Of a stretch of DNA of 64,000 nucleotides, positions 17,952 to 19,029 are shown piece after piece. The stretch is from the NCBI GenBank assembly GCA_965247095.1, contig OZ251997.1, forward strand, positions 2,368,001 through 2,432,000, given 5' to 3'. Origin of the DNA: Candidatus Multivorans sp. GTDB lineage: Bacteria > Acidobacteriota > Thermoanaerobaculia > Multivoradales > Multivoraceae. Below the pieces are notes generated by a model, which saw nothing but the letters and a program-made list of their open reading frames with translations, did no database searches and was not told the origin of the DNA. The position numbers and the translations under genes are program-made. Position 1 is the stretch's first letter. Each line of letters begins with the position of its first letter.

Positions 17952-18143
17952 TCAGTCCCGGTCGCTCGGCTCCCCGGTTAGGTGTTGGGATGAGCCAGCC
18001 GGGAGCCGGCCAGTCGAACGTTCTTGCCGGCGGCGTTCGCGCAGGATCTCAGCGTACATCTTGTCGGCTCTGGCCTCGCTGGCGGCGCGCCGCTCTGGCG
18101 ACCAGGTCTTGATGAGGTCCTCCCACGGATAGTGTCCCGTCAT
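17952..18143 (-). CDS. Mini-ORF 3, HigA-N-terminus-like, no HTH
   Basis: MTGHYPWEDLIKTWSPERRAASEARADKMYAEI; AGGGGAGG RBS; ATGA coupling. Confidence 0.7.
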   Translation of the reverse strand: MTGHYPWEDLIKTWSPERRAASEARADKMYAEILRERRRQERSTGRLPAGSSQHLTGEPSDRD

Positions 18144-18340
18144 CGTCTTGGTCCTCCCCTGCTAACTCCGGTCGGCTTCCGGCTCGGGCCTGTCGTTCCA
18201 GGTTCGGTCTTGGAGAGCTTCGCAAGGCGGGGGCGGTCGCTGTTGGCGACGATCTCGGCGGCCTCACGCTCGATCTCGGCGATTTCCTTCGGGGTGTAAA
18301 AGCTCCTCAGGATGTCGTCCAACGGAACGGGCTCGGTCAT
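18140..18340 (-). CDS. Mini-ORF 2, HigA-N-terminus-like, no HTH
   Basis: MTEPVPLDDILRSFYTPKEIAEIEREAAEIVA; same RBS; ATGA coupling. Confidence 0.7.
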   Translation of the reverse strand: MTEPVPLDDILRSFYTPKEIAEIEREAAEIVANSDRPRLAKLSKTEPGTTGPSRKPTGVSRGGPRR

Positions 18341-18528
18341 CGTGTCGGTCCTCCCCTGCGACTCCCGGTCGGTTTCCGGCTCGGGCCTGACGGTGCAGGT
18401 TCGGTCTTCGCGAGTTCGCGTTGGCGCCGGATCTCAGCGAGCGTCTTGGCGTTGTCGGCCTTGATGCGGGCGCGAGTCTCGGGCGGCAGGGTCTTGATGA
18501 GGTCCTCCCACGGATAGTGTCCAGTCAT
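18337..18528 (-). CDS. Mini-ORF 1, HigA-N-terminus-like, no HTH
   Basis: MTGHYPWEDLIKTLPPETRARIKADNAKTLAEI; RBS context AGGGGAGGACTCACACGATG. Confidence 0.7.
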   Translation of the reverse strand: MTGHYPWEDLIKTLPPETRARIKADNAKTLAEIRRQRELAKTEPAPSGPSRKPTGSRRGGPTR

Positions 18529-19029
18529 CGTGTGAGTCCTCCCCTGCCTGCGACGAAGCCTATCGCTACGGCAGCCGAGCGGGAGCAGCAAGCAGGTCGA
18601 GGTACGCGACTGACCTGGACATAGGGGAACGCCCACCTGGAGACAACGCAGTCCACAGGGTTTCGGGCCTCGATTCCGTCTAGGTCAGTAGGGAGGGCGG
18701 CCGCGGCGGTCCCCTTGCTCCTGAGACGGGCGCACACAGCGCCGCCCGGTCGCTCTCCCGGTGGAGCGTCTGAACGACGGAATTGAGGGCCCTCCGGCCA
18801 CTTTTCGCGCCTGGCTAGCAACTTCCCCCAGGGGGGAAATGGGTCGATTGCCCCCCTTCACGAGGCCCCGGCGGCCCGCGCAGGAGTCTTACCGCCGCGT
18901 GTCCCTCTGTTCCGGTCGCCGTAGCCAGCCTCCGGATCCGCGGATTCTCCGCGGCGCGCAGCGCCGCCGCGTCTGTGGTCGTCCAAGCGTGGCGTACCGG
19001 GTCTGGCTCTTGAAGGATCAGAACGCGAA

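Follow-up and report, generated by a model that had tools for sequence, protein, structure and literature searches.

A 64,000-nucleotide stretch of DNA from Candidatus Multivorans sp. (bases 2,368,001–2,432,000 of OZ251997.1, a single 4.6-Mb contig with about 68% G+C; hereafter the window) carries an array of three small genes, m1 to m3, which very probably encode toxin-binding modules derived from antitoxins. Each of them resembles the N-terminal head of a HigA-type antitoxin and stops before the helix-turn-helix (HTH) domain that follows this head in the antitoxin. No toxin gene accompanies the array, and the DNA around it is an integrative mobilisable island. For these reasons we favour, at a probability of roughly 0.55, the reading that m1–m3 are orphan mini-antitoxins, with an action in trans against the Gp49/HigB toxins of new hosts or rival elements. 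New are the reduction of the antitoxin to its head alone, the coupled array of three such genes, and the exchange of heads and tails at a junction that also provides the next ribosome-binding site (RBS). We found no description of such an array within the open-access literature searched.

Three coupled reading frames with diverged heads and a conserved junction

The three open reading frames (ORFs) of 63–66 aa, each with an RBS and with ATGA coupling, had been pointed out in a preliminary description of this DNA. We could confirm them and place them on the minus strand. The first gene, m3 (18337–18528, 63 aa), consists of a HigA-like N-terminal head (residues 1–37) and an internal-type tail that bears the RBS of the next gene. 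It is followed by m2 (18140–18340, 66 aa), which combines a diverged head with an internal-type tail, and by the last gene, m1 (17952–18143, 63 aa), which has an m3-like head and a different, terminal type of tail. Stop and start codons overlap as ATGA at 18340–18337 (m3/m2) and 18143–18140 (m2/m1). The RBS AGGGGAGG is found before every gene (minus strand 18545–18538, 18357–18350 and 18160–18153), with its 3' end 9 nt from the ATG in all three cases.

Diverged heads of about 120 nt thus alternate with a conserved junction of about 85 nt that comprises tail, RBS and start. Junction copy A (18336–18419, minus strand) contains the m3 tail, the AGGGGAGG RBS and the m2 start, and copy B (18139–18223, minus strand) the m2 tail, the RBS and the m1 start; the two are 86% identical over about 85 nt (blastn). 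The repeat reported earlier between the variable segments is therefore real, but its length of 73 bp does not hold. A partial copy of 24 nt with RBS and start only lies 5' of m3 (18524–18547, minus strand) and is 92% identical to the other junctions. Among the heads, those of m1 and m3 (18033–18162 and 18418–18547) share about 80% of their DNA sequence, whereas the m2 head is just 52–54% identical to either. This agrees with the earlier remark that m1 and m3 share a stretch, MTGHYPWEDLIKT, and then diverge, while m2 is a different variant. Tandem Repeats Finder did not report the array, since its units are mosaic and not simple tandem repeats. RNA folding of the junctions and the upstream leader was no better than that of shuffled sequences (junction z +1.35 and +0.71), and Rfam gave no match at the array. 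A promoter scan of 17600–19300 found 0 sigma-70-like sites. One terminator-like site (minus strand 17810–17795) lies about 140 nt past the m1 stop; about 1.1 such sites are expected by chance.

As judged from coding signals and homology, m1–m3 are real, translationally coupled genes. With a codon model trained on the host, the in-frame reading scored best over the first 40 codons of each ORF (log-odds +6.2, +10.9 and +8.4). Only slightly lower scores were obtained for the shadow frame of the other strand (+4.7, +10.4 and +5.9), and the tails received negative scores like those of non-coding DNA. In a library of 1.84 billion proteins, a profile of the HTH-less small proteins with this head (called minis in this text) matched 55 representative clusters at E ≤ 1e-3, seven of them at E ≤ 1e-10, and the best matches to relatives ranged from E 1e-27 to 1e-10.

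The substitutions are distributed unevenly. Synonymous divergence (dS) between m2 and m3 is 0.17 in the tails and 0.59 in the heads, so the junctions either arose later than the heads or have undergone homogenisation. In the comparison of m1 with m3, codons 1–13 harbor 0 nonsynonymous changes despite a dS of about 0.15, whereas codons 14–36 have accumulated about 19 nonsynonymous and about 3 synonymous changes (nonsynonymous divergence, dN, 0.51; dS 0.19). This contrast is significant (Fisher p 3e-5), with a similar dS in both parts.

The heads resemble the N-terminus of HigA-type antitoxins

The preliminary description had claimed a likeness to HigA N-termini that ends where the HTH would start, and had proposed a profile comparison as a check. 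The comparison bears the claim out. An alignment of the mini family (42 sequences) matched the family of HigA proteins that carry the HTH_37 domain with an hhalign probability of 98.1% (E 1.1e-13), over columns 1–37 of both. In a non-circular version, an alignment of array-type proteins (6 sequences) was compared with 11 HTH proteins that had not been recruited through minis, and this still gave 91.3% (E 9.5e-7). The alignment stops at column 37, and the array proteins end 25–30 residues past the head. Neither Pfam nor NCBIfam gave a match for m1–m3 (E ≤ 10 or E ≤ 0.1), so no HTH domain is seen, and none of the 42 members of the mini alignment has any Pfam domain. The absence of an HTH noted before for the three ORFs thus extends to these 42 members.

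The members of this family match its profile at E 1e-27 to 1e-3. They are 40–75 aa long, start with M-[ST]-G-[HR]-x-P-[WF], continue with a PE.R..I helix and end in a variable, disordered tail. All of these features are found in the array proteins. The family has no name in Pfam, NCBIfam, PADLOC or PHROGs, and searches of PADLOC and PHROGs gave no match for m1–m3. What is defined here is thus a widespread, unnamed family of HTH-less antitoxins of the HigA N-terminal type that current domain libraries miss, so that annotation would probably present such loci as toxins without a partner.

Within the same genome, tblastn found two weak relatives of the minis. One (L002) is a 111-aa HTH_37 (PF13744) antitoxin encoded directly downstream of a Gp49 (PF05973) toxin ORF; the other (L001) is a 72-aa protein without HTH, likewise directly downstream of a Gp49 ORF. 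The family of the L002 antitoxin comprises 1250 proteins at E ≤ 1e-5 and matches the structures of HigA2 and HigA3 from Mycobacterium tuberculosis (E 3e-14 and 5e-14; PDB 7ewc, 6lty). The head also occurs fused to HTH_37 in further proteins (L002 itself, L013, P0044 and P0052), and in one protein (P0008) to the ribbon-helix-helix domain Antitox_RHH (PF20605, E 1.1e-24). A profile search of the PDB with the mini family returned chance-level matches alone (best E 0.017), and no direct sequence match of the minis to HigA2 of Vibrio cholerae was obtained. The nearest clusters in the ESM Atlas are unnamed proteins of 56–64 aa (0.93–0.94), with HTH clusters merely at 0.85–0.86; these serve as leads only. 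A word-index protein search with m3 found m3 itself and one other protein (P0002).

Free heads are usually accompanied by a Gp49 toxin

We collected loci from 42 genomes of the genus and from a sample of 401 genomes of the phylum, and screened the fetched loci with profiles of the toxin, the minis and the HTH proteins. In 15 of the 21 distinct HTH-less mini loci other than the array, the mini directly follows a Gp49 toxin ORF (L001, where it is truncated, L004, L005, L008, L010, L011, L017, where it is degenerate, L018, L021, L024, L027, L030, L031, L032 and L033). The remaining six have no upstream Gp49 ORF (L006, L007, L009, L012, L029 and L034). In its usual setting, the free head is therefore an antitoxin.

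The array differs from these loci. As stated in the preliminary description, it has no HigB/RelE toxin nearby. The toxin profile built for the genus found nothing in the window and only two matches in the whole genome (L001 and L002, both outside the window). Likewise, for the three toxin families searched (Gp49, ParE_toxin and HigB-like), none of the genome's matches to PF05973 (4), PF05016 (6) and PF05015 (2) falls inside the window, and the 640 nt 5' of m3 contain no toxin-like ORF.

A modelled complex of m3 with a HigB-type toxin

Residues 1–42 of m3 were modelled together with a toxin from the same genus (G019, residues 1–115), each with a custom alignment of 6 rows. The runs reached ipSAE values of 0.69, 0.73 and 0.68, compared to 0.01 for the best of three controls. 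In the calibration of the modelling tool, 58 of 80 solved complexes came up to the mark, as did 2 of 110 mismatched pairs; for custom alignments these figures hold only roughly. The runs share at least 92% of their contacts, and the pLDDT of the partner is at least 74. In the modelled interface, the invariant residues 1–7 of m3 contact toxin residues 4–10, and the helix of residues 10–29 contacts toxin residues 12–35 and 104–112. The preliminary description had expected neutralisation of HigB/RelE toxins; binding to a Gp49/HigB toxin is supported by the model (0.69 versus 0.01). The support is for a likeness to HigBA-type complexes and does not amount to proof that the m3 copy binds.

Heads and tails recur in other combinations

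Array-type proteins are also encoded on a few other contigs, where the parts are joined differently. The protein P0002 is m3-like, and P0006 consists of an m2-like head joined to a terminal tail. The two have equal contig counts (2 each, the longest 14,308 bp), and their gene order is deduced from these shared counts and from the short contig described below. Another protein, P0005, from contigs of up to 35 kb, has an m1-like head that is identical through residue 21 and carries an internal-type tail, and P0057, on a 302-kb contig, is m1 with one change. In addition, the one sample with the locus (4 runs) yielded a contig of 314 nt at about one fifth of the main depth. Part of it matches the 3' portion of an m3-like gene; what follows is a unit of exactly 195 nt, of which 27 nt are aligned, 140 nt unaligned and 28 nt aligned, with a terminal tail at its end. 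This contig fits a two-unit variant of the array, although the short side of its joint, 28 nt, is below the 30 nt under which caution is advisable, and we take it as support and not as proof.

The swapped heads and tails in P0005 and P0006 and the fit of the two-unit contig support the earlier suggestion that number and content of the units vary between elements. The term cassette that was used for the units does not apply in the integron sense, however: the junctions have no significant fold, no integron integrase is adjacent, and the sole recombinase is 7 kb away.

No array of this type turned up in the genus outside the host genome (41 genomes), or among the 400 genomes that accompany the host genome (G000) in the phylum sample. 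Protein and distant-DNA searches of a plasmid collection gave no array match. Pattern matches derived from the array alignment numbered 13 in contigs of GTDB genomes, 93 in contigs of JGI metagenomes and 111 in IMG/VR, and none of them could be confirmed. A degenerate DNA pattern of the tail peptide gave 0 matches in the genome contigs and 0 in the metagenome contigs.

How the array might work

On the reading we prefer, each gene would encode a stand-alone N-terminal toxin-neutralising module of an HTH_37 HigA antitoxin, the partner of a Gp49/HigB RelE-like toxin. The invariant first 7–13 residues would add a strand to the first beta-strand of the toxin, while the amphipathic helix (about residues 10–29) would pack on the toxin and set the specificity. 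The tail, which is short, basic and disordered, would be mostly a translated spacer that bears the RBS of the next gene. As targets we envisage Gp49/HigB toxins encoded by the recipient's chromosome or by rival elements, so that the array would serve in anti-addiction or anti-defence. Units could be gained, lost and re-tailed through recombination at the conserved junction, and related elements would for this reason carry different sets of units. What we observe are the anatomy of the genes, their homology, the frequent position of free relatives next to a toxin, the mobile context and the variable content. Binding, neutralisation in trans and a benefit to the island are what we infer from these data.

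A more far-reaching version, which we put forward only tentatively and would rather doubt than expect to hold, is that the array forms a polyvalent and evolvable counter-measure. Its heads would each be tuned to a different Gp49/HigB variant and be shuffled, added or dropped at the RBS-bearing junction. They would help the island to enter hosts, or to persist in hosts, whose toxin-antitoxin modules would otherwise stop it from becoming established, or to displace rivals that use such modules for addiction. Toxin-antitoxin modules are more and more viewed as a means of addiction and of defence against incoming mobile DNA; the protein counter-measures known so far are for the most part single orphan antitoxins. 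If our reading is true, the array would show that elements can mobilise the neutralising head by itself (about 35 residues), and multiply and diversify it as a kit. The pair m1/m3, with an identical anchor and differences only in the contact helix, would then offer a compact test system for the evolution of antitoxin specificity.

Several observations weigh against the action of m1–m3 in trans. The present host has no obvious resident target toxin. Its two toxins of the matching subfamily are both defective, one through loss of the N-terminal half and one through an in-frame stop (L001 4872–5237, plus strand, and L002 4973–5230, minus strand; 1,342,871–1,343,233 and 1,624,975–1,625,286 of the G000 genome). 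Relatives retain full-length toxins of 120–132 aa. The host also has two intact Gp49 toxins, whose partner antitoxins differ from the heads in their N-termini. The array type is also rare: it is represented by this genome and by proteins from contigs with maximum lengths of 14, 35 and 302 kb, and scans of plasmids, phage contigs, GTDB species and JGI metagenomes yielded no confirmed array match. At the level of selection, the m1/m3 helix has a dN/dS of about 2.7, which does not exceed 1 significantly (p 0.23), and the tails, with their non-coding-like codon scores, are near neutral (dN/dS about 1). The helices may therefore simply be under relaxed constraint. The complex model may have passed partly because of its likeness to solved HigBA complexes, and it used custom alignments. 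Finally, the relaxase frame of the island may be disrupted and the island no longer mobile, since the coding signal of the relaxase changes frame near 15100 (see below).

Some of these points would also fit with a relic, that is, with duplicated leftovers of an HTH-less higA-like gene that drift without function after loss of the toxin. No toxin of the families searched was found in the window, decay has also struck the host's toxins of the matching subfamily, the tails have a dN/dS of about 1 and the helix does not fall below 1, and 6 of the 21 chromosomal minis are also without a detectable toxin. We nevertheless think that a relic is unlikely. All three frames are intact and have kept RBS and ATGA coupling, codons 1–13 show no amino-acid change at a dS of about 0.15, the first 40 codons retain host-like codon usage, and the heads are intact on three other sets of contigs on which the tails have been swapped. 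The genes might instead encode redundant antitoxins of a maintenance system whose toxin is an unrecognised island protein, for example the product of the 224-aa, the 217-aa or the 72-aa ORF. Five ORFs of the island have no family match, and the 224-aa ORF lies upstream of the array on the same strand; however, a gap of 640 bp separates it from m3, and the only homologue found for it is the C-terminal part of a 601-aa protein, downstream of which there are no minis. Moreover, the partner of the head family, Gp49, is directly upstream in 15 of 21 loci and missing at the array, which makes a cognate toxin of another kind improbable.

Even less can be said for a role that is unrelated to toxins, in which the tails would bind nucleic acid or the heads would engage a protease or a regulator of island excision or transfer. 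The tails are indeed basic and proline-rich, and the genes lie between mob and the end of the island. Across the family, however, it is the tail that is least conserved and near neutral, and the conserved part is the antitoxin head. We consider it very improbable that the region is not coding at all, as a binding-site array or an RNA element whose frames are open by chance. Chance ORFs are numerous in high-GC DNA and the tails do score as non-coding, but the protein-level homology (E down to 1e-27, 55 representative clusters) and the frame-specific substitutions speak for genes, and neither the folding of the junctions nor Rfam points to an RNA. Acting in trans as mini-antitoxins thus remains our preferred reading of m1–m3.

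Comparison with known systems

The closest counterparts of the heads are found in antitoxins of the HigA2 type (V. cholerae HigA2, M. tuberculosis HigA2 and HigA3). The array heads align to residues 1–37 of HTH_37, the segment that precedes the DNA-binding domain in these proteins. In V. cholerae HigA2, a disordered N-terminal segment is described to fold on HigB2, and a peptide of residues 3–22 to suffice for neutralisation (PMC5416850). The first 33–35 residues of MtHigA3 are unresolved in crystal structures and described as intrinsically disordered (PMC7340258). Unlike in HigA2-type antitoxins, this segment is a free protein in the array: it has no HTH, comes as three coupled copies and is not preceded by higB. 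The HTH-less minis downstream of Gp49/HigB in the genus share the head motif, the size of 40–75 aa, the disordered tail and the lack of a Pfam domain with the array proteins. In contrast to the array, which is tandem, toxin-less, located on a mobile island and provided with a conserved junction, they are single genes, and 15 of 21 are adjacent to a toxin.

An antitoxin without a DNA-binding domain is not unprecedented, as PaaA2 is described as such (PMC8630535). PaaA2, the ParE2 antitoxin of Escherichia coli O157:H7, differs from m1–m3 in that its toxin belongs to another family, in its three-gene operon with the toxin and a separate regulator, and in not being arrayed. Samuel et al. (2024) propose that toxin-less antitoxins on transferable elements inhibit toxin-antitoxin systems of rivals or the host (PMC11541004). 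The array resembles these leading-region orphan antitoxins, as they are presented there, in consisting of toxin-less antitoxin genes on a transferable element. The examples given in that report are full-length (e.g. HipB), single and placed relative to oriT, whereas the array contains heads only, in several copies. A phage has also been described to counter the DarTG1 defence with an orphan antitoxin-like protein (bioRxiv 10.1101/2024.07.11.602962).

Two further parallels are the expansion of pseudo-ToxI repeats in phage and the arrays of orphan immunity genes on mobile elements. In such counter-defence systems, repeat-mediated expansion changes dose or range. What these systems and the DarTG1 counter-defence have in common with the array is a mobile element that bears toxin-less antitoxin or immunity genes against a host system. 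They differ in the molecule, which is an enzyme, an RNA, or immunity proteins for secreted toxins.

The mobilisable island and its surroundings

The array had been assigned to a conjugative plasmid before. Instead, it belongs to an integrated island of 11.5 kb (about 8334–19826) in the 4.6-Mb chromosome. This island is flanked by CGGTT and appears to be inserted in a cobalamin riboswitch. It is missing from an empty site in one relative (G026), and a slightly larger stretch is missing from two others (G035 and G027). No transfer apparatus was seen in its gene content. With an integrase, a relaxase domain, a NikA/MobC protein and a defined empty site, and without a mating apparatus, the island is, by its gene content, an integrative mobilisable element and not a conjugative plasmid.

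The island integrase is a tyrosine recombinase (10207–11232, minus strand; PF00589, E 8.5e-15). Beside it, a 313-aa ankyrin-repeat protein is encoded (11190–12131, minus strand; Ank_2, E 1.4e-52). The ankyrin gene is followed by a stretch of low G+C content (12001–14000, 60.7% G+C) without a confident gene. An open frame on the minus strand (14450–16315) contains a relaxase domain of the MobA/VirD2 type (PF03432, E 5.5e-8). The coding signal from the G+C content of third codon positions supports this frame just from about 15850 to 15100 and then shifts to the frame of ORF 14752–15288, the product of which is a coiled-coil protein with a hydrophobic stretch. This points to a frameshift in the relaxase or to a mob gene that overlaps it. 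A relaxosome accessory protein like NikA or MobC is also encoded (15847–16329, minus strand; PF21983, E 3.6e-12; PF05713, E 3.8e-11).

Between mob and the array lies a gene for an AbiEii-family nucleotidyltransferase (16321–17010, plus strand; PF08843, E 1e-12; weak PADLOC match to AbiEii). In the plus-strand stretch 16321–17668, this gene is followed by the 217-aa ORF, which has no family match, and no recognisable AbiEi antitoxin gene precedes it. The preliminary description was right in that the array is on the same strand as the relaxase, but three genes of opposite strand (AbiEii, the 217-aa ORF and the 72-aa ORF) stand between the array and mob. That the array is part of a leading region is conjecture.

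The 224-aa ORF at the island end (19168–19842, minus strand) is upstream of m3. Among the other 400 genomes of the phylum sample, its sole homologue is the C-terminal third of the 601-aa protein mentioned above (G133; L039 325–2130; 40% identity, E 5e-18), and the island ORF may be a truncated gene. Between this ORF and the array, the minus strand of 18990–19160 contains short direct repeats (GCGTCACGCTA, twice, and ATTAGATCC, twice) and a C7-AA-G7 palindrome, which may represent a terminator, a cluster of binding sites or an origin.

At the empty site in G026 (L036 1038–1205), a cobalamin riboswitch (RF00174, 87 bits) extends across the insertion point. What is left of it in the window is a marginal RF00174 match of 33 bits at the right island border (19631–19906, minus strand); the left flank is at 8240–8333. 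One or more downstream minus-strand genes near 7600–8300 may have lost their B12 control. The region 7463–8330 contains three conserved blocks of about 260–340 nt that are 84–95% identical across the genus. They are contiguous in the window and spaced by inserts of about 600 nt in relatives such as G026. Elsewhere in the window, a DUF3800-VI RNA motif was found at 50754–50804 on the minus strand (RF02915, 63.5 bits).

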